Source: a virus
Strand: one strand, 5' to 3'
IMG/VR virus record: IMGVR_UViG_3300010391_000222
Coordinates: 2,770-66,769 of that record
DNA: 64,000 nt
Of this stretch, positions 1 through 64,000 are shown one piece after another. The notes beneath the pieces were generated by a model that did not search any database, had not been told where the DNA came from, and was given only the letters and a program-made list of their open reading frames with translations. A program made the translations under genes and the position numbers. Numbering within the stretch: the stretch's first letter is position 1; every line of letters starts with the position of its first letter.

Positions 1-354
1 AGTTTTAGTATTGGTCAAAAAGGAGGAGCATTTGCAAAAGGACGAAAGGCTATTGCAATTGATCAAAGAACTGGTTTTAAAAAATTGCAAAGAGATATGT
101 TATTTGAACCTGGCACTAATTATTTTATGCATAAGGAAGAATCAGACGGAAAGCATAATCTTGTAACAGATAAACTTAATTATATAAGTGATAAAATGAA
201 GGAACCAGAAGCAATAGGATTGAAGTATCCTAGTCTTGATGTAGCTCTTAGTATTGGAACAATTGTTTCTGCAGATAGTTTAGCTTTAGATGGTCCAAGA
301 CCTTTAGGTACTAATTTTTATCAATTCTATAGTGGTACTAGTTTAGGATTATGA
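1..354 (+). CDS. Virion structural protein, 5'-truncated; paralog of 351..788
   Basis: Frame is open from base 1 (SFSIGQKGGAFAKGRKAIAIDQRTGFKKLQRDMLFEPGTNYF), so it extends upstream of the tracked start at 85; aligns by eye with 351..788. Confidence 0.7.
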   Translation, partial: SFSIGQKGGAFAKGRKAIAIDQRTGFKKLQRDMLFEPGTNYFMHKEESDGKHNLVTDKLNYISDKMKEPEAIGLKYPSLDVALSIGTIVSADSLALDGPRPLGTNFYQFYSGTSLGL

Positions 355-788
355 AAATAAAGCATAGAGGGAAACCATTTGCAAAAGGACGAGATGCAGT
401 AGCTATTTGTCAACGATCAGGTTTTAAATATCTTCAATCTGAAATGGTATTTGAACCAGGAACTAATTATTTTGTTCATAGAAGTGAAACAGATGGTTTT
501 AAAAATTTAGTCGATGATCCATTGAATTATGCACCAAAGAAGATGAGAAGACCGGAATTAATTTCACTTAGATATTCTTTTCCAGAAGATAAGTTATCTA
601 TAGGAACTATTGTAAGTGCAGAACAATTATTTTTACCAAGTTATGCTTCAGTCTCTAATCAGTTTATACAGTATGCCGTAGTCAGTATAGGTTCTGGAGT
701 ATCGGGAGTAGTTTCGACTGCACGAGCAGCTAAGTTCTCTTCTAGTGCAAATAGTCAGTATGTATTAGTGATTTTCCAAGGAATATAA
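351..788 (+). CDS. Virion structural protein (FAKGRxAxAICQRSGF family of podovirus late genes)
   Basis: 145 aa, ATGA-coupled to the upstream paralog; located in the structural module. Confidence 0.65.
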   Translation: MKIKHRGKPFAKGRDAVAICQRSGFKYLQSEMVFEPGTNYFVHRSETDGFKNLVDDPLNYAPKKMRRPELISLRYSFPEDKLSIGTIVSAEQLFLPSYASVSNQFIQYAVVSIGSGVSGVVSTARAAKFSSSANSQYVLVIFQGI

Positions 789-795
789 ATTATAA

Positions 796-3228
796 ATGGC
801 TAATAATATAATAATTAAAGATGGAAATGACGTAAGTAGGACACTACATACTGTAGAAGATTCTACTAGTGCTCATTTTAATCAAAGTATTCCTACGGAT
901 GTCTCGGGTCATGTAGCTTCTATTGTCTCGGGAGCAGGTCAAGCTGCTCAGAGCGGTATGGGTGGTCTAGTAGTAGCTTTGCACCCTTCTAGTCCGGTGC
1001 CTGCTGGAACTAATTTCATAGGCGCAGTAAGCGTCAGAGGCAACGTTTCTATTGATGATAAAGTTTCTGTAGCAGGAAGAGTAAGCGCACATCAAGATGG
1101 TACTTGGGATGTAAATGCTTCAGTTGTAGGACTTGTAAGTATCAATGGTCCATTACCTGCTGGTACCAATTTACTTGGTAAGGTTTCTATTGCTGATTCT
1201 ATAATAGGAGTTTCTGTAAAAGATAGTACTCTTGCAATTACTCAAAGTGGCCCTTGGAGAGTTTCTGTAACCGATCCTCTACCTGCCGGTACTAATCTTA
1301 TAGGTGCTGTTTCTATTAGAGGCAATATTCTTGGTTCAGTATCAATTAGTAATATTGCAGATGTCTCTGTCCAAGATAACGCGCCCGTAAGTGTACGAGG
1401 AGGAGTTCTCGGTGCTGTATCGCTAGGCGGAGGTACTGCTATTATAGGCAAGGTTTCATTAGCTGGGATTAATCCTGTATCTGTAGCAGGTAATATTCCA
1501 GGTATAGACAGTGCTATTACTGTAGGTACTCATGCAGTTACACAGTCTGGTACCTGGACTGTACAACCAGGAAATACTGCCAATACTACACCTTGGCTAG
1601 TATCGATAGGCGGTAATGTCTCTTTGAGTGATAACGCACCTGTTTCTGTAAGAGGAGGAGTTTTAGGTGCTGTATCGCTAGGCGGCGGTACTGCCATTAT
1701 AGGTAAAGTATCACTAGCAGGTATTAATCCAGTTTCTGTAGCAGGCAATATTCCAGGTATAGACAATGCTATTACTGTAGGTACTCATGCAGTTACACAG
1801 AGTGGTACTTGGACTGTACAACCTGGAAATACTGCGAATACTACTCCTTGGCTTGTTTCAGTTGGTGGCAATGTCTCTCTTAGTGATAATGCGCCAGTCT
1901 CCGTAAGAGGCGGAAGAGTTTCTATTGCAGATAGTACTCTTGTTGTTACTCAAAGTGGTACTTGGACTGTTCAACCAGGTAATACCGCCAATACTACTCC
2001 CTGGCTTGTTTCAGTAGGTGGCAATGTTTCTCTTTCAGATAATGCTCCAGTTTCTGTACGCGGTGGTGTCCTGGGAGCAGTATCATTAGGTGGTGGTACT
2101 GCTCAAATAGGTAGAGTTTCTGTCTTTGTAGATCAAGTACCGTTCAATGTTTCGGTAATGAATTCTTTGCCTGTACCCGTAAGTATTGTAGCCGGTAAGG
2201 TATCTATACAAGGTATTTCTCAAGTATCGGTAGCTGGTTCCGTTACAGTAGCTCCTCCTACAAATACTGGTGCTGCAGTAGGTGCAGGTGCTTTCTTTGT
2301 AGGGGGTACCGATGGAGCAAATTTAAGAGGTTTACTTACAGATGCTTCAGGACGTTTGGTAGTACACGTAAGCAATACGGCTCCTGGTGGGGCTGCAGGT
2401 AGTACACAAGTAGTTTCTATTGGTGGAGCAGTAAGCAATCAAGCTGTCCAGATAGCTTTTACTGATGGCACTAATGCAAGAACACCTTTGGTTAATACTG
2501 GTGGAAATATTCTTGTCCATGTCTGTAATGCACAACCTACTCCTTCCGGTATTACTCAAATGGTCTCTATTGACGGAGCAGTAAGTACTCAAGCTGTACA
2601 AGTAGCTTTTACAGATGGAACTAATGCAAAAACTCCGTTAGTAGATGTAAGCGGTGTAATAAGAACAACAGGGTATACATTTACAAGTCAATATATTTTT
2701 ACGAGACCTGCAGATACTACTGCTTATGCAGGACCTACTGCAGCATTTCCAGGTACTGCAGGAGACTTAATTGCCAATAGTACTACAAATACTGCAGTAG
2801 TTCCACTTAAATTTAAAGTAGCAAGAGTGCCTGGGGGTATAGCATATATTCGTAGAGCACGTTTGTTCAGAACAGGTACTGCTGCTGCTGCTAATATACA
2901 TAATGTAGCTACTGCTTTACGATTACATATATTTAATACTACGAATGAAGTAAGTGTAGCTACTGGCGATAATGTAGCAATGAAGGCTTCTCCTGTAAGT
3001 GTTTATAGAGGACATATTGATCTTTTGCTACCAGTTAGTGTCATTGGCATTAGAACTGGTGGAGGTACTTCGGTAGCTTATTATCAAGGTGTTCCGGCAG
3101 GTTCTAGTGAAATTATTTGTCATTTAAGTTCTAATCAAGTTTCAATACAAGCTTTACTTGAATCAAGAGGTGCTTGGACACCAATTTCAGGAGAGATTTT
3201 TACTACACAATTAGACGTATTTCAATAA
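796..3228 (+). CDS. Val-Ser-rich repetitive fibre/decoration protein 1
   Basis: 810 aa, G/V/S/T/A-rich; 3 copies of TQSGTWTVQPGNTANTTPWLVS; non-repetitive C-terminal domain. Confidence 0.75.
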   Translation: MANNIIIKDGNDVSRTLHTVEDSTSAHFNQSIPTDVSGHVASIVSGAGQAAQSGMGGLVVALHPSSPVPAGTNFIGAVSVRGNVSIDDKVSVAGRVSAHQDGTWDVNASVVGLVSINGPLPAGTNLLGKVSIADSIIGVSVKDSTLAITQSGPWRVSVTDPLPAGTNLIGAVSIRGNILGSVSISNIADVSVQDNAPVSVRGGVLGAVSLGGGTAIIGKVSLAGINPVSVAGNIPGIDSAITVGTHAVTQSGTWTVQPGNTANTTPWLVSIGGNVSLSDNAPVSVRGGVLGAVSLGGGTAIIGKVSLAGINPVSVAGNIPGIDNAITVGTHAVTQSGTWTVQPGNTANTTPWLVSVGGNVSLSDNAPVSVRGGRVSIADSTLVVTQSGTWTVQPGNTANTTPWLVSVGGNVSLSDNAPVSVRGGVLGAVSLGGGTAQIGRVSVFVDQVPFNVSVMNSLPVPVSIVAGKVSIQGISQVSVAGSVTVAPPTNTGAAVGAGAFFVGGTDGANLRGLLTDASGRLVVHVSNTAPGGAAGSTQVVSIGGAVSNQAVQIAFTDGTNARTPLVNTGGNILVHVCNAQPTPSGITQMVSIDGAVSTQAVQVAFTDGTNAKTPLVDVSGVIRTTGYTFTSQYIFTRPADTTAYAGPTAAFPGTAGDLIANSTTNTAVVPLKFKVARVPGGIAYIRRARLFRTGTAAAANIHNVATALRLHIFNTTNEVSVATGDNVAMKASPVSVYRGHIDLLLPVSVIGIRTGGGTSVAYYQGVPAGSSEIICHLSSNQVSIQALLESRGAWTPISGEIFTTQLDVFQ

Positions 3229-3245
3229 TAAAAGGATATAATATT

Positions 3246-3851
3246 ATGCCAGGACCACCTCCAGATAGTTTTATAGCTTATAAAAATATTTATTTTGGTA
3301 CTGGAGTATCAGGTAATGAAACAATACCTGAACGTGCTAATTTTTTAACAATAGAAGTAATGGCTCCAGGCGGCAACGGAGGTACTGCCAATGCTTTATG
3401 GGGAGGTGGTGGTGGATCGGGAGCAGGAGCAAGCGATAAACTTTTTATATTAGGTGCTTCTGATGCAGGAAGACAAATATTTTATCAAGTAGGTGGTAGA
3501 AGTGGAGAAAATTCATTTGTTACTGGTAGTTTAGAAATAGAAGGAAGTGTCTCTATTCTTTGTAGTTCTGGTATCAATGGTTTAAATGGCGTAGATGGTG
3601 GTGCAGGAGGAAGTCCTGGGGGAAATGGATATGGAGGAGATAATAATTATACAGGTGTGGTTGGAGAACCGGGAGTTTTTGTTGGTGATGGCGGTTTTGG
3701 TGGAGTTAGAGGATATGTTCCAGTTAGTTATGATGTATACCCTTATGTCTCTGCTTCACCAGAACAAGGAGAAGGTGGTTCGGGCGGAAGTACTGATATT
3801 ATGCCAGGAGAAATTGCAAAATCTGGATTTATTTCATTTAAATTTTCTTAA
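3246..3851 (+). CDS. Glycine-rich virion protein
   Basis: ATG at 3246 after AAGGA is a more plausible start than the tracked 3174; GGNGG/GGGGGSGAG runs typical of phage glycine-rich fibre domains. Confidence 0.65.
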   Translation: MPGPPPDSFIAYKNIYFGTGVSGNETIPERANFLTIEVMAPGGNGGTANALWGGGGGSGAGASDKLFILGASDAGRQIFYQVGGRSGENSFVTGSLEIEGSVSILCSSGINGLNGVDGGAGGSPGGNGYGGDNNYTGVVGEPGVFVGDGGFGGVRGYVPVSYDVYPYVSASPEQGEGGSGGSTDIMPGEIAKSGFISFKFS

Positions 3852-3864
3852 TTAGGATAAACTT

Positions 3865-6800
3865 ATGGCTAACAATATTACAGTAAAAGACTCTACTGGT
3901 ACTACTAAGACAATTCATACAGTAGAAGATTCTACTAGTGCTCATTTTAATATGTCTGTTCCTGTAGACGTAAGTGGGCATACTGCGACTGTAGTATCTG
4001 GTAGCGGTCAAGCAGCTACAACAGGAATGGGTGGTCTAGTAGTAGCTTTACATCCTTCTAGTCCATTACCAGTAGGTACTAATTTACTTGGAGGAGTATC
4101 TGTAAGAGGTATTGTTACAGTAGCTGGTCCAGTATCTATTGGTGGCAATATTCCAGGTATTGATTCTGCAATTACAGTAAATGCTCATGCAGTAACTCAA
4201 AGTGGCCCTTGGAGAGTATCGGTAACTGATCCTTTGCCTGCAGGAACTAATCTAATAGGTGCAGTAAGCATTAGAGGTAATGTAAGTATAGACGATAAGG
4301 TTTCTGTAGCAGGTTTAGTTAGCGCACATCAAGATGGGACATGGAATGTAATTTCTAATACGCAATTAGTCTCTATTGGTGGAGCAACTAGTATTCAAGC
4401 ATATCCTATAGCGGGTAAAGATACTGCTGGAGATGCAAGAATTCCATTAATGACTACTGGTGGTGCTCTAATTGTCCATGTAAGTAATACTGCGCCAGGA
4501 GGTGCTGCAGGCAGTACTCAAATGGTCTCTATTGGCGGAGCGACTAGTGTTCAAGCTGTTCAGATAGCAGGTAAAGATACGGCAGGTAATGCTAGAAGTC
4601 CTTTGATGTTTACCGATGGTACTTTATTGGTTCATGTCTGTAATGCGCAACCTACGCCAACTGGTACAACTCAAATGGTCTCTATTGGTGGAGCAGTAAG
4701 CAATCAAGCTGTACAAATAGCAGGCAAAGATACTGCTGGTGATGCAAGAATTCCATTAATGACTACTGGTGGTGCTCTAATTGTCCATGTAAGTAATACT
4801 GCGCCAGGAGGTGCTGCAGGCAGTACTCAAATGGTTTCCATAGGAGGTACTGTCTCAAATCAGGCAGTACAAGTAGCATTTACAGATGGAACAAATGCAA
4901 GAACACCTTATTCAGATTCTAGTGGTATTCAAAGAGTATCTGTAATGGACAGTACTCTTGCAGTTACGCAATCGGGTACGTGGACGGTACAACCGGGCAA
5001 TACTGCGAATACTACTCCCTGGTTGGTATCGGTAGGAGGTAATGTATCTCTAAGCGATAATGCTCCCGTAAGTGTAAGGGGCGGTATCCTTGGTGCTGTA
5101 TCGCTAGGCGGAGGTACTGCTCAAATAGGTAGAGTTTCTGTCTTTGTAGATCAAGTACCGTTCAATGTTTCTGTAATGAACTCCTTGCCTGTACCTGTAA
5201 GCATTGTAGGTGGTGTCCTTGGTGCAGTATCGCTAGGCGGTGGCACTGCCATTATAGGCAAAGTATCGCTAGCAGGCATTAATCCAGTAAGTGTAGCAGG
5301 CAATATACCCGGTATAGACAGTGCCATTACTGTAGGTACTCATGCAGTTACACAGTCTGGTACCTGGACTGTTCAACCGGGCAATACCGCCAATACTACT
5401 CCCTGGCTTGTTTCAGTTGGTGGCAATGTTTCCTTAAGTGACAATGCTCCAGTAAGTGTTCGAGGCGGCAGAGTTTCTATTGCCGATAGTACTCTCGCGG
5501 CTACACAGTCAGGTACATGGACAGTACAGCCAGGTAATACAGCTAATACAACTCCATGGCTAGTATCTGTAGGAGGTAATGTCTCTCTTAGTGACAATGC
5601 GCCTGTTTCTGTACGTGGAGGTGTCCTAGGTGCAGTATCTCTAGGTGGTGGTACGGCACAAATAGGCAGGGTAAGTGTCTTTGTAGACCAAGTACCCTTT
5701 AATGTTTCTGTAATGAATACCTTGCCTGTACCTGTATCAATAGTTGGTGGAATTATAAATACTATTCAACAAGTATCTCTTGGAGGAGGTACTGCTACTA
5801 TTGGTAAACTAGGGGTTAATACAGATAAAGTTGTTATAGGTGCTGTATCTATAGCAGATACTACTCATGCAGTTACACAGTCTGGTACTTGGACTGTTCA
5901 GCCTGGCAATACGGCTAATACTACGCCTTGGTTGGTATCTGTAGGCGGCAACGTATCTCTTTCGGATAACGCACCCGTGAGTGTCCGTGGTGGACGGGTT
6001 TCTATTGCAGATAGTACTCTTGCTGTTACTGAATCAGGCACATGGACTGTTCAACCGGGCAATACCGCCAATACTACGCCGTGGCTAGTCTCAGTAAATG
6101 GTCCATTGCCTGCAGGTACTAATTTGCTTGGTAGAGTTTCTCTTGAAGGTTCTTTACCTGTAACTGGTATTACTCAAATGGTCTCTATTGGTGGAGCAGT
6201 AAGCAATCAGGCTGTCCAGATAGCATTTACAGATGGTACCAATGCAAGAACCCCTCTTACTACTACTACAGGTATTCAAATAGCTCATGTCTCGAATGTT
6301 TTACCTGATCATGGAGTAACTCAGAGTGGTACTTGGACCGTCCAACCTGGGAATACAGCCAATACAACTCCATGGCTTGTTTCAGTTGGTGGTAATGTAT
6401 CTCTTAGTGACAATGCTCCTGTAAGTGTCAGAGGTGGTGTCCTTGGTGCTGTCTCTATTGGCGGCGGTACTGCTCAAATAGGTCGTGTAAGTGTCTTTGT
6501 AGATCAAGTACCCTTTAATGTCTCGGTAATGAACTCTTTACCTGTACCTACAAGTGTAGTAGGAGGAGTTCTAAATGCTGTTTCTATTGGTGGGGGTACT
6601 GCACAGATTGGCAGGGTAAGTGTCTTTGTAGATCAAGTACCCTTTAATGTCTCTGTAATGAACTCTTTGCCTGTGCCCGTGAGTATTGTAGGCGGTAAGG
6701 TACATGTAAGTAATATTCTTCCCGATCACGGAGTTACTCAATCAGGTACTTGGACTGTTCAGCCAGGAAATACACCAAATACTGCTCCTTGGTTAACTAC

Positions 6801-7161
6801 AGATATTCCTAGTTCAGTAGGTGGTCTTACTATTAGTTCATATACGGTTTCTGCAGTAACTTCAGGTAGTCTTGTAAAATCTGCTGCAGGACAAGTTTAT
6901 AGTATCGCTGCTGCAAACAATGGTGCAGGTGCTTTATATTTAAGACTTTTTAATAAAGCTACTGCTCCTGCTTCTACAGATACGCCTTTTATAAGACTTA
7001 TTGTTCCTGGCAATACTGCAGGTGCAGGATTTGTATATTCTATTCCCTGTGGTCTAGCCTTTGGTACGGGCATTGGTTGGAGAATTAGTGGCGGTCTTGT
7101 AGATGGAGACACTACTGCTCCTGCAGATAATCAAGGTTATGTAAACATACTTTATAAATAA
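3865..7161 (+). CDS. Val-Ser-rich repetitive fibre/decoration protein 2 (paralog of 796..3228)
   Basis: 1098 aa; shares the N-terminus (MANNI..KD..HTVEDSTSAHFN) and repeat modules; 7 copies of the TQSGTWTVQPGNT unit; different C-terminal domain. Confidence 0.75.
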   Translation: MANNITVKDSTGTTKTIHTVEDSTSAHFNMSVPVDVSGHTATVVSGSGQAATTGMGGLVVALHPSSPLPVGTNLLGGVSVRGIVTVAGPVSIGGNIPGIDSAITVNAHAVTQSGPWRVSVTDPLPAGTNLIGAVSIRGNVSIDDKVSVAGLVSAHQDGTWNVISNTQLVSIGGATSIQAYPIAGKDTAGDARIPLMTTGGALIVHVSNTAPGGAAGSTQMVSIGGATSVQAVQIAGKDTAGNARSPLMFTDGTLLVHVCNAQPTPTGTTQMVSIGGAVSNQAVQIAGKDTAGDARIPLMTTGGALIVHVSNTAPGGAAGSTQMVSIGGTVSNQAVQVAFTDGTNARTPYSDSSGIQRVSVMDSTLAVTQSGTWTVQPGNTANTTPWLVSVGGNVSLSDNAPVSVRGGILGAVSLGGGTAQIGRVSVFVDQVPFNVSVMNSLPVPVSIVGGVLGAVSLGGGTAIIGKVSLAGINPVSVAGNIPGIDSAITVGTHAVTQSGTWTVQPGNTANTTPWLVSVGGNVSLSDNAPVSVRGGRVSIADSTLAATQSGTWTVQPGNTANTTPWLVSVGGNVSLSDNAPVSVRGGVLGAVSLGGGTAQIGRVSVFVDQVPFNVSVMNTLPVPVSIVGGIINTIQQVSLGGGTATIGKLGVNTDKVVIGAVSIADTTHAVTQSGTWTVQPGNTANTTPWLVSVGGNVSLSDNAPVSVRGGRVSIADSTLAVTESGTWTVQPGNTANTTPWLVSVNGPLPAGTNLLGRVSLEGSLPVTGITQMVSIGGAVSNQAVQIAFTDGTNARTPLTTTTGIQIAHVSNVLPDHGVTQSGTWTVQPGNTANTTPWLVSVGGNVSLSDNAPVSVRGGVLGAVSIGGGTAQIGRVSVFVDQVPFNVSVMNSLPVPTSVVGGVLNAVSIGGGTAQIGRVSVFVDQVPFNVSVMNSLPVPVSIVGGKVHVSNILPDHGVTQSGTWTVQPGNTPNTAPWLTTDIPSSVGGLTISSYTVSAVTSGSLVKSAAGQVYSIAAANNGAGALYLRLFNKATAPASTDTPFIRLIVPGNTAGAGFVYSIPCGLAFGTGIGWRISGGLVDGDTTAPADNQGYVNILYK

Positions 7162-7178
7162 GGATTAAGAATAAAATT

Positions 7179-7559
7179 ATGGCAGCAGTTTTAGATCGTC
7201 AAATAGTTCCACAGAAACAAGAAATTATTACTTCAGAGTATGAGATTACTACTGAAACTAAAAGTATTACAATGGAGATTGACAGACATAATTGGACTAA
7301 AGACGATAAAGACGGTCTTGTATCATTAATTGCAATACTTGAAGTAGACGAAACTCTCAAAGGTGATTGGCGTGAAATCGGTAGTTGTGGAATGGAAGGA
7401 GGAGAGATAATTGGGCGAGACGGGCTTCCTATTACAAAATCGGGTATTACAATTAGTCTTGATGAAAAAACAAGTTTTCCAAAAGGGACAAAAGTGCGTG
7501 CTAGATTAAAGACTTCATCGGTAGACTTGGAAACAGAAATAAGAATTATCGAAGGTTAA
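7179..7559 (+). CDS. Hypothetical protein in structural module
   Basis: 126 aa ORF filling the gap between structural genes. Confidence 0.6.
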   Translation: MAAVLDRQIVPQKQEIITSEYEITTETKSITMEIDRHNWTKDDKDGLVSLIAILEVDETLKGDWREIGSCGMEGGEIIGRDGLPITKSGITISLDEKTSFPKGTKVRARLKTSSVDLETEIRIIEG

Positions 7560-7574
7560 TTTTAGGATAAAATT

Positions 7575-8882
7575 ATGGCAACTGTTACTCACGATTCGTC
7601 AGTTTCTGCAAAGGGAATAAATGTTTCTACTTTGAGTGTCTCATTGACGATTGCCAATAATTCTAATCGTTATGTAATTGGCCATGCTTGTGCAGATACT
7701 GCTGCAGGTCCGGCTCAAATTACTAGTATGACTTGGAATACGACAGAGACAATGGCTGCTCTATGGTCGCAACTTCAATTACTTGTTCGTACTAGAGCTT
7801 TTGGACTTGCTGCTCCTACAGCTACTACAGCAAATATTGCTTGTACTTTTGGTGCTACTGAAGAAGCTGTAGCAGTATCGGGGTCGTCTTTTTATAATGT
7901 TCACCAGACTACTTCTACTGGAACAGCGCGTACTTCTAGCGGAACTAGCGGTAATAATTTCTGGATTGGAGTTGATGGAGGAGTAACCAATGGTTTAGTA
8001 GTAGGATGTGGAGCTTGGGATAAAACCACAATCGGTAATCCTGCAATATCTGACAAGACTGGTCTACTTGAATTTTGGGCATCTGGGGCTCTTTCGACAG
8101 CTACGGCACAAACGTCTCGTACTCCGGCATTGCCTGCAAATAGTCAGCGAGGAGATATTGTACTTGCTCATTGTGCATCAGAAAATAATAATACGCATGC
8201 TTGTTCTACGTCAGGATGGAATAATTTAGGGCAAACCAATAGCGGTACTGGATGGACTGTTTCTTATTGGTGGGCCATTGAAGATGGTGCTCTTGGTGCT
8301 CCAGTAATTACTTGGACTGATTCAAATGATGCTAGTGCACATACTCATTCTTTTCGCGATACCAAAGTAAGTACTCCTTGCGCTTATATAGGTACTGTAG
8401 GAACTGGAACAGGAGGTACTCATACTTCTACTGGAGGCAATAGTACAGAAAATAATGTTCGTGTAGCTTACATAGATCATGCAAATGCTAATACTGCACT
8501 TGCGACTCCTGCTGGATGGACAGAACATACAGATAGTGGTTCGGCAACTGGTCCTTGTCAAACTACACTTGGGTCTATTGCAATTGCTACACTTGGCACT
8601 GGGTCTGGTAATATTAGTGTACTGGGGGCTCTTGCAGCTTGGGTACAACAACAGATTGAAATTTATCGTCATGCTATTACACAAGTAGCAATGACGGAAC
8701 AAGAAGATATTGGTGATTTTGCTGCTTTTGCTGTCTCTTATGAGACCTCTTCTACCTATAATACATTAGGTTGGACTGGCACAGGAACTACAGCTTCATA
8801 TGTTACTGGAGCAATAGAACTTAAACCTACTGCTGCTGCAGCTACTTCACAACAACAATTAATGATGTTAGGGGTTTCGTAG
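7575..8882 (+). CDS. Ser/Thr/Gly/Ala-rich beta-strand virion surface protein
   Basis: 435 aa, AGGA RBS; composition and context fit a fibre-tip or decoration protein. Confidence 0.6.
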   Translation: MATVTHDSSVSAKGINVSTLSVSLTIANNSNRYVIGHACADTAAGPAQITSMTWNTTETMAALWSQLQLLVRTRAFGLAAPTATTANIACTFGATEEAVAVSGSSFYNVHQTTSTGTARTSSGTSGNNFWIGVDGGVTNGLVVGCGAWDKTTIGNPAISDKTGLLEFWASGALSTATAQTSRTPALPANSQRGDIVLAHCASENNNTHACSTSGWNNLGQTNSGTGWTVSYWWAIEDGALGAPVITWTDSNDASAHTHSFRDTKVSTPCAYIGTVGTGTGGTHTSTGGNSTENNVRVAYIDHANANTALATPAGWTEHTDSGSATGPCQTTLGSIAIATLGTGSGNISVLGALAAWVQQQIEIYRHAITQVAMTEQEDIGDFAAFAVSYETSSTYNTLGWTGTGTTASYVTGAIELKPTAAAATSQQQLMMLGVS

Positions 8883-8893
8883 GAGAGATATAA

Positions 8894-9574
8894 ATGACTT
8901 CACCCATTGGTTCTTATACTACATTAGTTTCTGCCATAGTCGATTATTTTGAAGACGATGGTACAGAATTTAAGGCTTATATTCCTGTAGCTGTAGACCT
9001 TGCAGAACAACGTCTTGCGCGCGAGATTGATTCTACGCATCTTAAATTTAATACTAATGTCTCTAGTACGGCTGCCAATAGATTAATCAATAAACCTACT
9101 GGGTACAAATTTGCTTTTAATCTTCGCTATATTACTCCTTCGGGCGAACTTAGGACACTCTTCAAAACTACAGATTCTTATATTGAAGACTATTGGCCTT
9201 GGGGTAATTCTAGTGTAGGTTGTCCTAAATATTATGCAGATTATAGTCAGACACAATTTATAGTAGGCCCTACAGTCTCTAATGCAGGAGATTTTCCTCT
9301 TAGTTATTCGGGAAGACCTACCCCCTTGACTGCTACTGTAAGTATCAATGTTTTCACAAGTTCATTTAGTGATCTTTTGTTTTATGCTACACTTATAGAA
9401 CAAGCAAAGTTTGCTAGGCAAAATACGATGGTACAGACTTTAGAAGGCAATTATCAGTCTTGTCTGCATAGTGTAGTAAATGAAGGTAGGCGTGAACGTC
9501 GAGATTCTGGTCTTGAACCTGCAAATACTCAATCAAATATTAATAGTTTAAATGGACCGATTCAAAGTGAATAA
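8894..9574 (+). CDS. Head-tail adaptor / tail tubular protein A-like
   Basis: 226 aa; YTTLVSAIVDY..FIPVAVDLAEQRLARE-type N-terminus, G-PKYYA and DLLFYATL motifs as in podovirus adaptors; AGGAG RBS. Confidence 0.65.
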   Translation: MTSPIGSYTTLVSAIVDYFEDDGTEFKAYIPVAVDLAEQRLAREIDSTHLKFNTNVSSTAANRLINKPTGYKFAFNLRYITPSGELRTLFKTTDSYIEDYWPWGNSSVGCPKYYADYSQTQFIVGPTVSNAGDFPLSYSGRPTPLTATVSINVFTSSFSDLLFYATLIEQAKFARQNTMVQTLEGNYQSCLHSVVNEGRRERRDSGLEPANTQSNINSLNGPIQSE

Positions 9575-10079
9575 TATAACAGAATTAAAATTACAAGAAC
9601 AATATAAAATTTGTCCTAGATGTAAAATTGATTTACCTTTTAGTGCTTATCATAAAAGTAAAAATAAGAAATTTGGATTGCAAGTAATTTGTAAAAATTG
9701 TAAATCAAAAGAATTAAAAAAATATGCTTTAAAGCGTGCTGAATATAGTATGAAATATAGATATGCACTACCGATAAAAGAATATTTACTTGCTAATGCA
9801 AAAAGAAGTGCTTTGAAACGAAAAATGGAATGTGATCTTACACTAGATAATATGCCCATAATTCCGACAACATGTCCTATATTAGGTACAGATTTAAGTG
9901 TAAGAATCAAAGATCATCGTAATTTGTATTCAATTGATCGTATAGATAATAATAAAGGATATGTTCAGGATAACATTGTAATTGTTAGTATGAGAGTAAA
10001 TAATTCTAAAGCTAATCTTTCTTTTAATGAGTTAGAAAAGATGTATTTCTTTTACAAACAATTTCAAAAACCGGAATAG
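9552..10079 (+). CDS. Free-standing HNH-type homing endonuclease
   Basis: CPRC..CKNC zinc finger, TCPILG, SIDRIDNNKGYVQDNIVIVSMRVNNSK; much more AT-rich than flanking genes; start may be GTG 9567. Confidence 0.75.
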   Translation: MDRFKVNNITELKLQEQYKICPRCKIDLPFSAYHKSKNKKFGLQVICKNCKSKELKKYALKRAEYSMKYRYALPIKEYLLANAKRSALKRKMECDLTLDNMPIIPTTCPILGTDLSVRIKDHRNLYSIDRIDNNKGYVQDNIVIVSMRVNNSKANLSFNELEKMYFFYKQFQKPE

Positions 10080-10091
10080 GAAGAATAAGCA

Positions 10092-11081
10092 ATGACTTCT
10101 AGTTATAGTACACGCAAGAGACTTGAAAAGCAAAATCCCAGTGAGAACAATAATACTTGGGGTGGGTTTTTGAATAGTAATACCATTGATCTTATAGATG
10201 AATGCTTCGGTCTTGTCTGCGTAACCATGACTACGGCAGGAGATTCTACGCTTAGTATTAACAATGGTTCTAGTGACGAAGGCAGACGTACTCAGATTGT
10301 TCTTACAGGTGTACCTACTTCTAATGTAAGGCTTTTTGTACCTGCTCAACAAAGCTTCTATGTTGTTCGTAATAAGATGACTGGAACCAAGCGTGTTCGT
10401 CTTACTAATACTGGAGGTTCTAATGGCGTAGACTTTAGTGGTACGGGAAGTGGAGCAGAGCAAGGAGTAGTAGCTTCCGATGGAACTAATGTCCGTGAAA
10501 TTATAAGAACAGTTTCCGTAGGTCAATTTAATTTATTTACTACTGGTATGATCTTTCCTTTCTTTAATTCAGTAGGAGCAATACCGAGTGGATGGGTAAA
10601 TTGCGATGGAACTAATGGTACTCCGAATCTTAACGATAGATTTATCCTTGGAACTACAAGCGCGAGTAATTATGATACTTCAGGAGGTGCACAGGTACTT
10701 ACTGCTGCTTCGTCAGGTGATCATAATCATGGTGGCACAGTAGTATCGACAGCATTGACTAGTGTACATATACCTGCACATGCACATTATGTCTTTACTA
10801 ATCATCAAGAAACTGCTACCACTAATGATTACTCTCCCGGAGGCAGTAATACTACAGCTAATTCTAGAACTGCATCTACTAGAGTTGTAGGTACTGGTAA
10901 TGATTATGGTATGGCTGGTCAAGTAACTACTGCTAATCCTTCAATAGGTCAAACATCATGGGCTTATAGTTCTGTAGCAGATGGACATACGCATACTATA
11001 AATACAGGAGGAGGGCATACACATACTATTGCAGACGGAAGACCTCCTTTCCATAGAATGCTCTACATTATGAAGACCTAA
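10092..11081 (+). CDS. Tail fibre protein with collar domain (copy 1)
   Basis: MTSSYS..LEKQ..EN.NTWG attachment N-terminus; collar motif GMIFPF..IPSGWVNCDGTNGTPNLNDRFILG; HxH repeats; RPPF end. Confidence 0.8.
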   Translation: MTSSYSTRKRLEKQNPSENNNTWGGFLNSNTIDLIDECFGLVCVTMTTAGDSTLSINNGSSDEGRRTQIVLTGVPTSNVRLFVPAQQSFYVVRNKMTGTKRVRLTNTGGSNGVDFSGTGSGAEQGVVASDGTNVREIIRTVSVGQFNLFTTGMIFPFFNSVGAIPSGWVNCDGTNGTPNLNDRFILGTTSASNYDTSGGAQVLTAASSGDHNHGGTVVSTALTSVHIPAHAHYVFTNHQETATTNDYSPGGSNTTANSRTASTRVVGTGNDYGMAGQVTTANPSIGQTSWAYSSVADGHTHTINTGGGHTHTIADGRPPFHRMLYIMKT

Positions 11082-11085
11082 TCAA

Positions 11086-12072
11086 ATGTCCAGTACTCAT
11101 ACAGGAAGAAAAAGACTAGAACGACAAACACCAGGAGAAAACAATAATACCTGGGGAGGATACCTTAATAGTAATACTATTGATCTTCTAGATGAATGTT
11201 TTGGTCTTACTTGTGTAGTAATGACTACTGCAGGTGATTCTACGTTTAATAGTTTACCTGGGCAATCGGATGAAGGACGCAGATCACAAATAGTACTTAC
11301 AGGAGTTCCTACCAGTAATGTACGTTTATATATTCCTGCACGAGAATCTTTTTATGTAATACGTAATAAAATGACCGGGAGTAATAAAGTAACTATTACT
11401 AATACTGGAGGAACTAATGGTATTGATTTTTCAGGAACCGGATCAGGAGCAGAACAAGGAATAATTATTTCCGACGGAACCAACGTAAGAGAGATATTTA
11501 GAACAGTATCTGCTGCTTCTCTTCCATTTTATACAAAAGGAATGATATTTCCATTTTTTAATTCAGTAGGAGCTATTCCTTCTACCTGGGGATTATGCGA
11601 TGGAACTAATGGAACTCCTAATTTACAAGATAGATTTATTCTAGGAACTGTTAGTGCTACTAATATTGATACTTCTGGAGGAGGACAGATACTTACAACA
11701 GCCTCTAATGGTGATCATGCACATGGAGGTACAGTAGTAAGTACTGCTCTTACGAGCGCCCATATACCTGCACATGCGCATTATGCTTTTGCTATGTATC
11801 AAACAAATGCAGTTGCAGATAGATATTCTCCGTTCGGAAGTAATACAGATGCTAATAGTTTTACTGCTGCTAATACTGAATCTGGAACTAGAGTTTATAG
11901 AATGGCAGGTCATGTAACTACTGCTAATCCTTCAATAGGACAAACATCATGGGCTTATTCAAGTATTGCTGATGCACATAGTCATGCAATTAATACTGGT
12001 GGGGGTCATCAACATACTATAACAGATGGAAGACCTCTTTTTCATCGTATGTATTATATTATGAAACTCTAA
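11086..12072 (+). CDS. Tail fibre protein with collar domain (copy 2)
   Basis: Full-length colinear paralog of 10092..11081. Confidence 0.8.
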   Translation: MSSTHTGRKRLERQTPGENNNTWGGYLNSNTIDLLDECFGLTCVVMTTAGDSTFNSLPGQSDEGRRSQIVLTGVPTSNVRLYIPARESFYVIRNKMTGSNKVTITNTGGTNGIDFSGTGSGAEQGIIISDGTNVREIFRTVSAASLPFYTKGMIFPFFNSVGAIPSTWGLCDGTNGTPNLQDRFILGTVSATNIDTSGGGQILTTASNGDHAHGGTVVSTALTSAHIPAHAHYAFAMYQTNAVADRYSPFGSNTDANSFTAANTESGTRVYRMAGHVTTANPSIGQTSWAYSSIADAHSHAINTGGGHQHTITDGRPLFHRMYYIMKL

Positions 12073-12085
12073 GGAAGAAAATATA

Positions 12086-13897
12086 GTGAGCGGCGATAGT
12101 AAACTTAAATCTCTTGAAATCTTAAACGGCATTGATCGTAATGTTACCTCTTATCAAGCTAAAGGTAAATGGATTGATGGCGATAAGATTAGATTCTTTA
12201 AAGGCAATCCCGAGAAATTGGGAGGCTGGTCTAAATTAGCCGCAGGTACAAGCTATAGAGGTATCGCTAGAAAGGCTATTACTTGGGCTGCACTAAATGG
12301 TGATAATTTTTATGGATTAGGAACTCATAAAGGATTGTTTGTCTATAGTGGTGGTGATTATTATGACATTACTCCGCTACGAGCTACTGCTACTGAAACT
12401 AGTTGCATTAATATCATCGCAAGTACTATTAATAAGTTTAAAGTAAGCGATGCAGCACATGGAGCAATAGCAGGAGATTATGTAGCTCTTACTTCAGTAA
12501 GCGATGCAGAAATTGATATACATGGAGTATACGAAGTAGTAAGTGCAAATACTAATAATTATGTAGTGTCTGTAAATGCTTCTACTTCTCTTCCTAATAC
12601 TATTGCACAAACTAAAAAGGGCAGTAGTGTAACAATTAGTTATCTTTTACAAACAGGAAAAGCAAATAATGAACCTACTACAGGTTATGGTTCTGGTACT
12701 TATGGTTCAGGCCCTTATGGTCAAGGAACTACTGGGTCTCTTATTAATAACTTGAGACAATGGTCGTTCGATACATGGGGCGAAGACCTTATGGCCTTAT
12801 TACGAGGAGGTAATGTCTATAGATGGGATAAATCAGATGGTCTAGGGACTAGGGCTTCTGTAGCAAGTAGTCTTATTCCTACAATGAGTAATATAGTCTT
12901 GGTTACAGAAGAAGCAAGACACATGATGCTCTTAGGAACTAGTGCTTTTGCAGGAGATTTCGATCCTCTTGCAGTAAGATGGTCTCAGTCTGAAGACTAT
13001 ACTGTCTGGTCTCCTGCAGTTACTAATGCAGCAGGAGGATTTAGATTGAATTCAGGTAGTCAAATTGTAGGAGCAGTAAAGTCTAAGAAAGAAATAGTAG
13101 CTTTTACCGATGAAGGAGCACATGGTATTATTTACAGAGGAGCGCCTTTCTTTTTTACTCAAGAACGTCTGGGTCTTGGTTGTGGTCTAGTAGGACCTAA
13201 TGCTGGGTTAGACTTAAATGGTACTGTATATTGGTCCGGTAAATCTTCTCTTTTCAAATATGATGGTACTGTGCAAACTATAAGAACTACTCTGGATAAA
13301 TCTATTTATGATCCAGATTCTGCTTATAGTTTTAATATGGACCAAAAAGAAAAAATAGTAATGGGACTTAATTCTGAGTTCAATGAATTATGGCTGTTTT
13401 ATCCTTCTGTAAGTAGTGGAGAAAACAATAGATATTTTGTCTATAATTATAATACTGAAGAAGTCTTCGATGGATCATTGGACAGAACTACATATGTAGA
13501 TGCATATTTATTCGATAGACCTTTGGCTACTTCTACAAGTAATGCATCTTTTGCTCATGAAATTACACACGATGCTAATGGAGCAGAACTTCCTGCTTTC
13601 TTAGAGTCAGGTTATTTTGATATTGAAGATGGTCAATATCTTACTTTTGTAGATAGAATTATTCCCGATGTAACCAATCTTACTGGTAATTATATGACTG
13701 CATACATCAAGCTTCGTAAGTTTCCTTCTGAAACTGCAAAAGTAAAAGGACCTTATATAATTGGACCAGGGACTAAGAAGATACCTCTTCGAGGGCGAGC
13801 AAGACAAATTGCATTAAGAATAGAAGTATCTAGCGTCGGTAGTGATTTTAGATTAGGTCGTTGGCGTGCAGGAATAAATCCAGATGGAGAACGATAA
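12086..13897 (+). CDS. Tail nozzle / tubular protein B (P22 gp10-like position)
   Basis: 603 aa; GKWIDGDKIRF..PEKLGGW, WSFDTWGEDL, VRWSQSED, NSEFNELWLFYP and a PDGER end, as in podovirus nozzle proteins. Confidence 0.7.
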   Translation: MSGDSKLKSLEILNGIDRNVTSYQAKGKWIDGDKIRFFKGNPEKLGGWSKLAAGTSYRGIARKAITWAALNGDNFYGLGTHKGLFVYSGGDYYDITPLRATATETSCINIIASTINKFKVSDAAHGAIAGDYVALTSVSDAEIDIHGVYEVVSANTNNYVVSVNASTSLPNTIAQTKKGSSVTISYLLQTGKANNEPTTGYGSGTYGSGPYGQGTTGSLINNLRQWSFDTWGEDLMALLRGGNVYRWDKSDGLGTRASVASSLIPTMSNIVLVTEEARHMMLLGTSAFAGDFDPLAVRWSQSEDYTVWSPAVTNAAGGFRLNSGSQIVGAVKSKKEIVAFTDEGAHGIIYRGAPFFFTQERLGLGCGLVGPNAGLDLNGTVYWSGKSSLFKYDGTVQTIRTTLDKSIYDPDSAYSFNMDQKEKIVMGLNSEFNELWLFYPSVSSGENNRYFVYNYNTEEVFDGSLDRTTYVDAYLFDRPLATSTSNASFAHEITHDANGAELPAFLESGYFDIEDGQYLTFVDRIIPDVTNLTGNYMTAYIKLRKFPSETAKVKGPYIIGPGTKKIPLRGRARQIALRIEVSSVGSDFRLGRWRAGINPDGER

Positions 13898-14596: not shown

Positions 14597-15079
14597 ATGT
14601 ATGAACACAAAGGTATTCTTTATCGTCAAGGACAATTTAAGGATATTCCTAGTCTTACTTCGTTTCTTACTAATATTACCAAAGAAAATAATCTAGGACT
14701 AATCTTAGAACATGATGTAGATTCAATCGCTGAAACCCTTAGACAATTAATTAAACAAAATCAAGGGGTTATGCTTTTAGCTGAAAAGAATGGATTACTC
14801 GTAGGGTGTATAATATATGGAATTGTTACATTATGGTGGTCAAAGAAACAATTCTTTAATAACTTAGCTTTTTATGTAGCTCCAAAGTATCGTAAGGGGT
14901 TGAATATACAAGGTAAATTGCTTGAACTTTCTAAAGCTTTTTCAGATGAATCTCAGATACCAATCTTGATCTCTTTGTTCGATGCTACCGATAAAAAACT
15001 TAGAACGATGAAATATTTGAATTATAAAGGATTTAAGAGCATAGGAGTCAAGGGACTTTATGTTCCGGGAGTAAAATAA
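14597..15079 (+). CDS. GNAT-family acetyltransferase
   Basis: FYVAPKYRKG acetyl-CoA motif A and C-terminal YKGF; directly upstream of the ejection genes. Confidence 0.7.
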   Translation: MYEHKGILYRQGQFKDIPSLTSFLTNITKENNLGLILEHDVDSIAETLRQLIKQNQGVMLLAEKNGLLVGCIIYGIVTLWWSKKQFFNNLAFYVAPKYRKGLNIQGKLLELSKAFSDESQIPILISLFDATDKKLRTMKYLNYKGFKSIGVKGLYVPGVK

Positions 15080-30096: not shown

Positions 30097-30292
30097 TAGA
30101 AGTAACAAGTTCCATTATTGTATTTTCTCTAGGCCCCCACATATATTCATATGCATCATTCATATAATTCACTACTTCTTTAAACTCATTGGCGGCAATG
30201 TCGGCAAGTATAAGTGAATTACCATCGTCGTCTAAAATTTCTACTTCATTTAAGATAGACAGTAATTCAGCAAAGCGGTTCTTAGTTATCAT
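30089..30292 (-). CDS. Hypothetical protein
   Basis: 67 aa, overlaps both neighbours. Confidence 0.5.
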   Translation of the reverse strand: MITKNRFAELLSILNEVEILDDDGNSLILADIAANEFKEVVNYMNDAYEYMWGPRENTIMELVTSND

Positions 30293-31244
30293 TCTTCCAT
30301 TCTCCTATTTGAGACGAATAGTGTTTCAAATGTGTCTTATTAATTATACTCTCATTGAGCGCGCCAATTAACGAGGTTCCCTTATCGGCACCCAATATAT
30401 TGATCTTTACATCCGGTATATCATCGCTTAGGAACATCTGTAGGTCCTGTAACTGAGCAATAAGCTCTCCCGTAGTCCAGAACTCTTTGCCCCCCTGACC
30501 TATTGTAACAGGCCAAAACTTACGTATTTTCTTACCTTCTATCTCTTCTATTGCTTCAAAGTCTTTAGGTTTATCTCTTAGATTTGAATCAAAAGCCAAT
30601 AAATTAACAGTCCTAAACCCAAGATAATGAGCGAGACTGATACTTCTAGTAGCACTACAAGTTCCTCCTTGAACAAAATTAGTTACATGTGACAAAGGTC
30701 CAGGAGCTTCTTTAGTACCTGTAAGACCGTTAGCTGCACTATGCCAGCCATAGATTTCATAGCCATTACGTGTAAGCCATCGAGTTACACTACTATGAGT
30801 CATAGAAGCCACCAAGAATTTGGTGGACTTAGGTGCAGCAGAATATAGGGTCTGGCGTAGATAACCATGGGTACTTATGCCAGTAATTTCCCTAGGATCA
30901 AGGACTACACAAAAATGTGGTCTTAGTCCATATTTAGCTAGTAGAGGCAAAGCATGTTTAATGGTAAATAGTTTATTCTTGGTGTTATCAAACCATTCAG
31001 GTCGAAGATACCCATTCTTTAAAAGACGTTCCAATGAAGGTCCTGCAGATACTACCCAAGCAATTTCATCATTTATTAGCGACTTAGTTATCCAACAATC
31101 TTTAGGAAGTAATCCTAGATTTTCTTTGGCATTCTGAGCTATATTTTCCGAAGGTACAGAATCTCTTGGCTGAACAAGAATATTGAAACCATCGGTAGCA
31201 TTCTTAATTAAACCTCCTGTAAATTTATTGCGTTGTTTATTCAT
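30282..31244 (-). CDS. Maf/MptE-like (MAF_flag10, DUF115) putative glycosyltransferase
   Basis: AWVVSAGPSL, VVLDP and GGTCSATRSISLAHYLGFRTVNLLAFDS match the Maf-family pattern. Confidence 0.7.
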   Translation of the reverse strand: MNKQRNKFTGGLIKNATDGFNILVQPRDSVPSENIAQNAKENLGLLPKDCWITKSLINDEIAWVVSAGPSLERLLKNGYLRPEWFDNTKNKLFTIKHALPLLAKYGLRPHFCVVLDPREITGISTHGYLRQTLYSAAPKSTKFLVASMTHSSVTRWLTRNGYEIYGWHSAANGLTGTKEAPGPLSHVTNFVQGGTCSATRSISLAHYLGFRTVNLLAFDSNLRDKPKDFEAIEEIEGKKIRKFWPVTIGQGGKEFWTTGELIAQLQDLQMFLSDDIPDVKINILGADKGTSLIGALNESIINKTHLKHYSSQIGEWKNDN

Positions 31245-32697: not shown

Positions 32698-33247
32698 TAA
32701 CTGTCCTCTTGTATATTCCAGTAAGAAAAATTAGATTAGGATCATTACTTGTCTTTTCGTTTTCTAATTCTTTGATTAAGATAAATCCTGTTGCATCCAA
32801 CTTCTTTCGCCAGAAATCAGAGTTTTCTATAATTAAATGAGCATTACGTCCATCAGGCAATGATTTATTCGATTTAACAAGGGCAATACTGAGATAAAAA
32901 ACATAATGTCCAAAAAAATATATATCTTTAAGTACTTCATCTAAGCACTCCGGTTCTATATGTTCTAAGACACCTGAACATACTACTCCATCAAATTGAC
33001 CAATAGGACGTACAGAGAATTTATCGACACAAGGATCATAATTAACTCCTAGTACTTTATATTTTCCTAAAAGAGTTGAAACAAGAGACCCTTTACCGCT
33101 ACCATAGTCCAATAGACTTCTTACTTCATAGGGTTTAATAAGTTCTTCATAAACCTGATCTGCTCGTTTATAGCCTTTATTACCAAATAAATTCTTCTTA
33201 TTGTGTAATTCTATATTTAAAGCCTTATACTCTTCACTTATTAACAC
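32684..33247 (-). CDS. Class I SAM methyltransferase
   Basis: LLDYGSGKG, YDP, VVCSGVLEHIEP, LPDGRNAHLI. Confidence 0.85.
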   Translation of the reverse strand: MLISEEYKALNIELHNKKNLFGNKGYKRADQVYEELIKPYEVRSLLDYGSGKGSLVSTLLGKYKVLGVNYDPCVDKFSVRPIGQFDGVVCSGVLEHIEPECLDEVLKDIYFFGHYVFYLSIALVKSNKSLPDGRNAHLIIENSDFWRKKLDATGFILIKELENEKTSNDPNLIFLTGIYKRTVNDNL

Positions 33248-63960: not shown

Positions 63961-64000
63961 AGATCGGGAAGAGCACACGTCTGAACTCCAGTCACCGTAC
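63961..64000 (+). other. Illumina TruSeq adapter plus index (artefact)
   Basis: AGATCGG(G)AAGAGCACACGTCTGAACTCCAGTCAC followed by CGTAC, with one extra G. Confidence 0.97.

Follow-up and report, generated by a model that had tools for sequence, protein, structure and literature searches.

A Val-Ser excess in the tail proteins of a clade of marine podophages that encodes a predicted soluble glycosylation module

The stretch of DNA analyzed here (64,000 nucleotides, hereafter the window) comprises bases 2770–66769 of a single 66,769-bp viral contig, IMG/VR record IMGVR_UViG_3300010391_000222. Its tail proteins, above all two giant repeat fibers, contain more Val-Ser (VS) dipeptides than their composition predicts. 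This excess is real, protein-level and tail-specific, and it is maintained across a deep clade of HTVC023P-related marine podophages (clade A). A conserved glycosylation module, with enzymes predicted to be soluble, is encoded by clade A (at 30.3–34.9 kb of the window) but by no sister lineage examined. The statistics call for a continuing tail- and clade-specific force favoring Ser directly after Val; the simplest candidate for this force is modification of the serines by the clade's own predicted-soluble glycosylation enzymes. The proposal of a first-pass annotation that VS is an O-glycosylation sequon for phage-encoded enzymes is retained tentatively, at slightly less than an even chance, with protein as the presumed acceptor and the VS serine as the presumed site.

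Fiber 1 (positions of all features are collected in Table 1) contains 47 VS in 810 amino acids (aa), exactly as counted by hand in the first-pass annotation, against 11.8 expected from composition. Its paralogue, fiber 2, which had been described as similarly rich, has 62 VS in 1098 aa against 16.1 expected. The two giants together carry VS at ~3.9 times expectation, and the observed number was reached in 0 of 2000 shuffles for either protein. Masking of the repeats (removal of every 12-mer with at least 9 of 12 residues identical to an earlier one in either giant) left 763 of the 1908 residues, which still hold 30 VS against 9.2 expected (3.3-fold; 0 of 5000 shuffles reached 30, the maximum being 23). 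In the non-repeat C-terminal 250 aa of fiber 1, there are 7 VS against 1.87.

The excess extends to the other tail proteins, where the VS-containing tetrapeptides cited by the first-pass annotation were all found in place. Twelve non-repeat tail-module proteins (3195 aa, start residues dropped) contain 38 VS, against 19.3 in whole-protein shuffles and 21.1–22.8 in shuffles confined to windows of 10–50 aa (p ≤ 0.0005). Local composition was rejected as the cause, as windowed shuffles lift the expectation merely from 19.3 to 22.8. Paralogues have VS sites in common; with one protein per paralogue family, 31 VS remain against 14.8–17.0. VS ranks at the top of all 400 dipeptides in this group (39 vs. 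19.6, Poisson p 7e-5), with observed/expected ratios (O/E) of 1.05 for VT, 0.70 for IS and 0.49 for LS, and with SV mildly elevated at 30. The nozzle has 7 VS against 3.2, but one of them is produced by the GTG start codon, leaving 6 true VS against 3.1. The six internal proteins have 13 VS against 9.9, and the 52 open reading frames (ORFs) of the minus strand have 34 against 32.2. For the 2053-aa internal protein, quoted previously with ~7 VS, the low excess was borne out (5.6 expected), the count itself being 8. The enrichment thus persists after correction for both composition and repeats. VS pairs are written with 14 different codon pairs; therefore the signal lies at the protein level, and a nucleotide motif was rejected as its explanation.

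VS was chosen by the first-pass annotation after inspection of the sequence, and the signal from the window alone would not be compelling. The comparative data make it convincing. Relatives were classified by the presence of the Maf-like gene of the cluster (30282..31244); 15 of 16 long contigs bearing this gene encode a nozzle homologue and therefore belong to the same phage group. The closest cultured relatives, HTVC023P and HTVC027P (Pelagibacter), CRP-901 and CRP-902 (Roseobacter), DSL-LC04 and MinM2 (Synechococcus), are all distant, with nozzle identities of 30–36%, and a tblastn search of 50,697 phage records found no Maf-like gene. The comparison included 12 Maf-positive genomes, namely the discovery genomes G000 and G003 and ten others, each at least 91% complete, and six Maf-negative genomes (G096, 92% complete, and five cultured phages). 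The tail module was defined blindly: the nozzle was included together with every ORF of 100 aa or more in the 12 kb preceding it.

All 12 Maf-positive genomes have a tail-module VS O/E of 1.25–3.32. The six Maf-negative genomes give 0.53, 0.66, 0.86, 1.09, 1.31 and 1.76, the last value representing 9 VS against 5.1. In the ten further Maf-positive genomes, outside discovery, the 93 pooled tail proteins contain 353 VS against 201 (1.76, p 2e-22), again the top of 400 dipeptides; the runner-up, DG, reaches 2e-6, and SV, VT, IS and LS stand at 1.16, 0.96, 0.79 and 0.85, respectively. The pooled Maf-negative tail modules contain 104 VS against 109, and the tail-region proteins of five cultured relatives have no general VS excess. 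The expectation that relatives without the glycosyltransferase cluster would also lack the enrichment was thus confirmed. Internal proteins of the Maf-positive genomes stand at 1.25, their other proteins at 1.14 and the non-tail proteins of the Maf-negative ones at 0.98; no clade-specific excess is seen in internal, replication or head proteins.

Among the Maf-less relatives, HTVC023P, HTVC027P and DSL-LC04 (L008, L011 and L007) carry 2-oxoglutarate (2OG)-Fe(II) oxygenase genes interleaved with the tail genes, and HTVC023P and HTVC027P encode a group-1 glycosyltransferase just after the nozzle. These enzymes may represent a different way of modifying tail proteins.

The result was reproduced in a second sample of 80 IMG/VR nozzle loci, which partly overlaps the genomes of the first one; here the loci were divided by their place in the nozzle tree and the nozzle itself was excluded. 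Clade A contains 572 VS against 355 (1.61, p 2e-26, top of 400 dipeptides) and clade B contains 254 against 251 (1.01), with downstream internal proteins at 1.12 and 1.18. The difference is also seen locus by locus (18 clade-A vs. 13 clade-B loci, one-sided Mann-Whitney p 0.0006). De-duplication at >70% identity combined with repeat masking leaves 524 VS against 326 in clade A and 280 against 278 in clade B. The clade-B tail-module proteins (among L207–L286) are enriched in VT instead (430 vs. 338, 1.27, p 9e-7).

The excess could be assigned to particular protein families. Fibers have an O/E of 2.02 in Maf-positive genomes (14 proteins) and 0.97 in Maf-negative ones (9 proteins); for nozzles, the values are 1.91 (12) and 1.08 (6). 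The first-pass annotation had attributed the enrichment to exterior virion proteins in general. This stands for the fibers, the nozzle and the tail module, but not for the capsid (1.35 in Maf-positive vs. 1.63 in Maf-negative genomes) or the portal (1.43 vs. 1.88), which, like the terminase, have no clade-specific excess, nor for the adaptor, which is VS-rich in both clades.

On a nozzle tree built with FastTree from 94 rows, one half of 38 rows (clade A) contains all 19 rows classified as Maf-positive, and the nozzle O/E there is 1.2–3.2. All 13 Maf-negative rows and G078 fall in the other half, and the split has 75% support. VS positions turn over within clade A. Nine Maf-positive nozzles have VS in 34 alignment columns, of which two are common to seven of the nine sequences and 16 are singletons; these nozzles are only 33–42% identical, and the VS excess still persists. 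The 38 clade-A nozzles have 300 VS in 70 column pairs, at which clade B has T in 27%, S in 22% and A in 11%. Thus, positions of one kind, with a small polar residue following a beta-branched one, are taken by Ser in clade A. The residues flanking VS are V, A, S and G, with few charged ones.

Fibers homologous to the giants in other phages do not share the pattern. A relative of their TWTVQPGN module is encoded in 266 of 269 matched IMG/VR stretches; 79 loci were kept, with 83 proteins containing the module. These proteins have 673 VS against 517 expected (O/E 1.30) and none exceeds 2.5, so the suggestion that all fibers are VS-rich was rejected. At position X of the pattern G-x-V-X-[VIL], the two giants of the window have Ser in 94% and 88% of cases and the giant of G003 in 82%. 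In 77 other homologous fibers, Ser accounts for 15% of 197 cases, T for 21% and A for 18%. PF01973, the Pfam family of the Maf-like protein, was found in 1 of 50 records of homologous TWTVQPGN fibers. Other fiber types of clade A have VS-rich repeats of their own, 'DDVSVSGN' in G055, G056 and G086, and 'SVSAFT...KVSG' and 'NVSALTS' in G060 and G070, with at most weak repeat-level similarity to the giants of the window. A tblastn search with fiber 1 in the same 50,697 phage records gave no match, although the low-complexity filter may have hidden its repeats.

The near-invariant peptide 'QSGTWTVQPGNTANTTPW' (L012–L090, IMG/VR) marks a fiber module common to very different phages. Contigs with this module span lengths of 5 kb to 480 kb; some are of jumbo size, and two are proviruses. 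In one unrelated phage fragment, G053 (L061/L100), a 690-aa open frame with PF01973 lies ~6 kb downstream of a TWTVQPGN-module fiber; the 15 ORFs of this fragment contain 25 VS against 21.7 expected, which is too little data.

The glycosylation cluster consists of six minus-strand genes, and no transmembrane-like segment was found in their six products. The label given by the first-pass annotation was right in kind: families, folds and fusions point to predicted soluble glycosyl- and methyltransferases. The Maf-like family is present in at least 539 IMG/VR stretches and is almost wholly viral or metagenomic. In the protein collection it forms 91 clusters, some fused to methyltransferases, and PF01973 is present in all 91 homologues. 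Among the best 80 loci, the Maf-like gene is accompanied by the 279-aa GT8-fold gene in 77 and by the 277-aa gene in 70; the 187-aa methyltransferase is found in 23, and the 247-aa and 238-aa genes in 8 each. The 277-aa domain, a Methyltransf_24/TylF domain and the Maf-like domain constitute one protein of 750–850 aa (~780 aa) in 61 of 76 complete ORFs, which is split in the lineage of the window.

No useful match to PDB sequences was obtained in searches with the Maf-like, 247-, 277- and 279-aa proteins. The model of 34064..34903 has 108 PDB matches at E ≤ 0.001 in Foldseek, the best being WbbM (1.4e-9), followed by the catalytic domain of UGGT, GT8 3tzt, LARGE1, pneumococcal GlyE, LgtC, glycogenin and PBCV-1 A64R. 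The protein is therefore predicted to have a GT-A fold of the GT8 type, LgtC/glycogenin-like, though no Pfam family, PF01501 included, matched it at E ≤ 0.01. Its residues D125 and D127 are invariant in 14 sequences and are read as the putative catalytic DxD (metal/nucleotide-sugar motif). For 33234..34067, the atlas neighbors are named nucleotide-diphospho-sugar transferases, with PF01501/PF03407 on 31% of members, which serves as a lead only; 'WLDAD' is conserved in A5. A model of a fused homologue (pLDDT, the predicted local distance difference test, 75.1), a relative rather than the window protein, has the Magnetospirillum Maf glycosyltransferase 5MU5 as its best PDB fold match (6.1e-10), and its middle part matches cation-dependent O-methyltransferases. 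The conserved core of the module, as modeled, is the GT8-fold enzyme plus the GT-A-like/O-methyltransferase/Maf unit, a predicted glycosylation machinery. DNA carrying hydroxymethylated bases was judged an unlikely target of glycosylation, because no thymidylate synthase/hydroxymethylase (PF00303) or ThyX (PF02511) match was found in the genome.

The genes specific to clade A were identified as those of G000 present in at least 6 of 12 Maf-positive and 0 of 8 Maf-negative genomes. They are the glycosylation genes, the T7-type primase-helicase, endonuclease I and two genes without assigned function (293 and 176 aa). The cluster is the only nameable clade-specific candidate with a predicted protein-modifying chemistry.

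On the glycosylation reading, the enzymes would act in the cytoplasm and place a short, partly O-methylated glycan on the Ser of V-S pairs in tail-module proteins, the fibers and nozzle among them. New VS pairs would continue to arise under selection for acceptor sites, with Ser used where the sister phages have Thr, Ser or Ala. The giant fibers could be the extreme case, in which short G-x-V-S-[VIL] units have been multiplied into arrays. In its fullest form, V-S would serve as an acceptor code for O-glycosylation confined to tails, in a system that many uncultured marine podophages possess; the GT8-fold and three-domain enzymes would build a methylated glycan, and selection for glycan density would have reshaped the tail proteins of the clade. 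This extended version is judged somewhat less likely than not.

Several observations weigh against the glycosylation reading. On the nozzle tree, the cluster coincides with the VS excess on one branch only, so that shared ancestry is inseparable from cause, and no independent gain or loss of the cluster was found on that tree. The only apparent secondary loss within clade A, G071 without a match, is a 65% complete genome whose contig ends where the cluster would lie. The link between cluster and VS proposed in the first-pass annotation therefore stands as a co-occurrence across one deep split, not as repeated co-evolution, and conservation within the cluster is confined to the Maf-like gene with its pair of glycosyltransferase partners. 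The motif is enriched on the putative substrate proteins only where the enzyme is present, as expected of a glycosylation sequon such as N-x-S/T or D-[ST]-[AILVMT], but this rests on one phylogenetic contrast. G078, placed outside clade A, encodes a distant PF01973 protein (26% identity) but none of the partners, and its tail O/E is 0.98. Among the Maf-negative labels, seven belong to fragments with at least 16 kb of match-free sequence downstream of the nozzle, the cluster being located 9–16 kb downstream in complete genomes; gene calls are longest ORFs throughout. Rather than adjoining the genes of its proposed substrates, the cluster is part of the replication block, ~16 kb away from the tail genes and on the opposite strand. 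The capsid is not involved in the VS excess, and the adaptor family is equally VS-rich without the cluster (2.78 vs. 2.90). VT is not enriched (0.91–0.96), though the Maf enzymes of the literature modify both Ser and Thr. The fused homologue also matches the archaeal MptE kinase fold (M. jannaschii HPPK, 1.2e-6); template modeling (TM) scores for the fold matches of this homologue are low because its model comprises several domains. No match to a CMP-sugar synthetase (PF02348) or NeuB (PF03102) was found in the 66.8-kb genome, and therefore a donor of the Maf type would have to come from the host.

The main rival explanation is a structural habit of the lineage, rated somewhat less likely than the glycosylation reading. 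V-[S/T] pairs are common in trimeric fibers and tail proteins. The pair would form part of a beta-strand, a core residue being followed by a small polar one, with Ser in clade A and Thr in clade B; VS units would have been multiplied by duplication, and the module would have a different target, for instance small molecules, the host envelope or some other product of the phage. Shared ancestry alone would then account for its co-occurrence with VS. The single contrast, the position of the cluster within the replication block and the VS-rich adaptor of both clades are consistent with this. So are the summed V[ST] excess, which is alike in the two clades (1.25 in A vs. 1.14 in B), the VT level of clade B (1.24–1.27), the T, S or A found there at clade-A VS sites, and the strand-like flanks of VS. 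In both clades, conservation is higher for VS serines than for the remaining serines (0.44 vs. 0.30 in A, 0.35 vs. 0.27 in B); therefore part of the signal is structural, which also tells against the glycosylation reading, and conservation was rejected as a discriminator. However, the turnover of VS positions, with the excess persisting across such divergent nozzles, demands a force that is still at work. Outside the tail, proteins of these genomes have no excess, which argues against a genome-wide amino-acid habit, weakly related or unrelated types of fiber repeat all converge on VS, and the 77 homologous fibers of other phages lack the pattern.

Alternatively, the VS serines could be selected for another function, such as acylation or phosphorylation, recognition by a fiber chaperone or assembly factor, or binding to a surface common to the hosts of the clade. 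In favor of this, the signature is restricted to tails and to the clade and its positions turn over, and the GNAT acetyltransferase gene at 14597..15079 could provide an acylating enzyme. CRP-902 also has a GNAT gene, yet without a VS excess, and the clade-specific genes include no kinase or chaperone of the clade (two of these genes have no assigned function). We know of no precedent for a receptor-binding signature at the level of dipeptides, which counts against this explanation, and it is considered improbable. A statistical artifact, arising from the post hoc choice of the dipeptide, from repeats and paralogues counted repeatedly or from local composition, is highly improbable. Paralogues do share VS sites, and the one-genome non-repeat signal (7e-5) is matched by leading dipeptides elsewhere in the genome (minus-strand KE, 1.2e-6). 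But the excess was replicated in genomes outside discovery (p 2e-22 to 2e-26) and survives de-duplication, repeat masking and windowed shuffles, so that this explanation is largely refuted. Modification of VS serines by the glycosylation enzymes of the clade thus remains the favored, tentative reading.

Table 1. Tail-module genes and glycosylation-cluster genes of the window.
Feature	Position	Strand	Evidence
Small tail-module protein, second of three tandem paralogues	1..354	+	1 VS vs. 0.25–0.41 expected
Small tail-module protein, third paralogue, VS-rich C-terminal half	351..788	+	5 VS vs. 1.6 expected, p 0.0135
Giant repeat fiber 1	796..3228	+	G-x-V-S-[VIL] short repeats, TWTVQPGN modules, non-repeat C-terminal domain
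Giant repeat fiber 2, paralogue of fiber 1	3865..7161	+	63% identity to fiber 1 over 450 aa
Tail-module protein, no confident family (PHROG/Pfam)	7575..8882	+	8 VS vs. 2.6, p 0.003
Head-to-tail adaptor, SU10-type	8894..9574	+	PF24175 SU10_adaptor, 6.8e-16; 4 VS vs. 1.4
Tail fiber, paralogue a	10092..11081	+	PHROG tail fiber/collar families
Tail fiber, paralogue b	11086..12072	+	PHROG tail fiber/collar families
Nozzle / 'stabilization' protein	12086..13897	+	phrog_3287, 1.1e-55
Maf/MptE-like domain protein, 320 aa	30282..31244	-	PF01973, 51.6 bits vs. cut-off 34.6, profile positions 2–165 of 171
Accessory glycosyltransferase-like protein, 247 aa, sub-lineage-specific	31237..31980	-	phrog_1962 glycosyltransferase, weak match 3.6e-7
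Sugar-type O-methyltransferase, 238 aa	31981..32697	-	PF13578 (Methyltransf_24) 8.9e-11; RMNT_CmcI (rhamnosyl-O-methyltransferase-like) 1.6e-5; middle domain of fusion in relatives
Second S-adenosylmethionine (SAM) methyltransferase, 187 aa	32684..33247	-	phrog_24759, 3.2e-21
GT-A-like (nucleotide-diphospho-sugar transferase-like) protein, 277 aa	33234..34067	-	Mostly N-terminal domain of fusion in relatives
Predicted GT8-fold glycosyltransferase, 279 aa	34064..34903	-	Predicted model, pLDDT 82.7, Foldseek

The plus strand of the window carries the tail and internal-protein genes (1 to ~25.3 kb). The minus strand carries genes of replication and nucleotide metabolism (T7-type primase-helicase, DNA polymerase, endonuclease I, ribonucleotide reductase, dCMP deaminase). 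Directly upstream of the giant fibers there are three tandem small paralogues (genome 2279–2749, window 1–354 and 351–788). They combine an N-terminal motif, KG..A...C/D.R.GFK......FEPGT, with a VS-containing C-terminal half, have no family match, and also have 'IGTIVSA' in common. The ATG of the second one sits 17 nt ahead of the window start, and PHROG and Pfam searches with the third gave no match. Two genes of this type occupy the same place in G003, a 67-kb IMG/VR contig that is 65–72% identical to the window phage in the proteins compared.

An HNH/endonuclease VII-like gene (window 9552–10079) is inserted between the adaptor and fiber genes. The GNAT-type acetyltransferase gene (window 14597–15079) lies amid the genes of internal/ejection proteins, and the GNAT gene of CRP-902 has the same position. 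A phiEco32-like COOH-NH2 ligase (PF14395, window 43742–44818) is encoded between the DNA polymerase and primase-helicase genes. The whole contig yielded no gene for terminase, portal or major capsid protein, although in the relative G003 such genes precede the homologous tail genes. The contig thus probably lacks its head block, and the listed completeness of 100 seems an overestimate. A 96-aa open frame, the first on the contig, may be the end of a head gene. At the other end, the last 40 bases (window 63961–64000) resemble an Illumina TruSeq adapter, AGATCGG.AAGAGCACACGTCTGAACTCCAGTCAC followed by index-like bases, apart from one extra G, and are therefore library sequence, not phage DNA.

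If the glycosylation reading is true, a whole clade of HTVC023P-type-related marine podophages would sugar-coat its host-recognition organelles. Such a coat could affect adsorption, protease resistance and interaction with host surface glycans, and a simple statistic of the sequence would suffice to predict the glycan coat and its glycosites. In addition, the finding provides the fused GT-A/O-methyltransferase/Maf protein, a large viral family without assigned function, with a candidate substrate. Even if the glycan idea fails, a strong clade- and organelle-specific dipeptide bias with positional turnover needs explaining.

Virion glycosylation and Ser glycosylation of the Maf or serine-rich-repeat type are already known in kind. 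To our knowledge, experimental proof of glycosylated virions is limited to a small number of phages. Literature searches on virion glycosylation turned up no report of a VS signature or of a Maf-type system for these phages, and the literature on MptE-like proteins together with phage yielded only unrelated papers. The accessible text of PMC9599517 says of glycosyltransferases only that they may modify DNA or proteins.

The closest phage parallel concerns mycobacteriophages, whose glycosyltransferases reportedly modify their own structural proteins, the capsid and tail-tube subunits, as Freeman et al. are said to have described in 2023 in Cell Host Microbe. We know of no dipeptide signature reported for that glycosylation. 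In the phages considered here, by contrast, the VS signature is on the fibers and nozzle, the capsid lacks it, and the enzyme families differ.

Particles of chloroviruses are glycosylated by virus-encoded enzymes, and the capsid glycans of PBCV-1 are atypical N-linked ones. PBCV-1 A064R, which we take to be a three-domain protein with a methyltransferase domain, resembles the fused phage protein in being a multi-domain viral protein that joins glycosyltransferase and sugar O-methyltransferase domains, and A64R (2p6w) is a fold match of 34064..34903 (E 1.5e-5). The differences are that PBCV-1 is a eukaryotic virus and that no Maf-like domain is involved.

Serine-rich-repeat glycoproteins (Fap1, PsrP, GspB) are glycosylated in the cytoplasm. 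They carry S(V/I/E) arrays, and their system includes a GT8-fold enzyme, GlyE being among the fold matches of 34064..34903. According to the accessible part of PMC2952246, Fap1 contains ~2000 residues of S(V/I/E) dipeptide repeats. Unlike these, the phage repeats are G-x-V-S-[VIL] units in predicted beta-rich fibers rather than pure dipeptide runs, and the carriers of serine-rich repeats are adhesins of Gram-positive cocci, not virions. An initiating pair of the GtfA/GtfB type was not seen in the phage, though no search aimed at it was made.

The Maf flagellin O-glycosyltransferases (M. magneticum 5MU5, Aeromonas caviae Maf1 and Clostridium botulinum Maf) have the PF01973 domain in common with the phage protein. 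As far as the available portions of PMC9290775 and PMC11339370 indicate, Maf enzymes follow no strict sequon and use Ser/Thr sites beside hydrophobic residues such as V, I, M and F; the sites in A. caviae are mainly serines flanked by I/L, and those of C. botulinum are surrounded by V, M, I, F, T and G. The phage enriches only Ser after Val, not Thr. The chain of 5MU5 has 632 residues, whereas the phage protein has 320 aa or is fused to GT-A-like and O-methyltransferase N-terminal domains, and the 320-aa form departs from the ~600-aa Maf architecture with its flanking domains that engage flagellin. The proposed substrate is a phage tail protein instead of flagellin, and the phage genome is without a nonulosonate pathway. 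The likeness may extend to the fold, 5MU5 being the best match of the fused phage homologue although the MptE kinase fold matches as well, and to the proposed logic, Ser/Thr glycosylation in the cytoplasm of a protein that later forms an exposed filament. The 30282..31244 protein itself is assigned by its profile match to the Maf/PF01973 (MptE-like) family, with a putative role in glycosyl transfer to protein.

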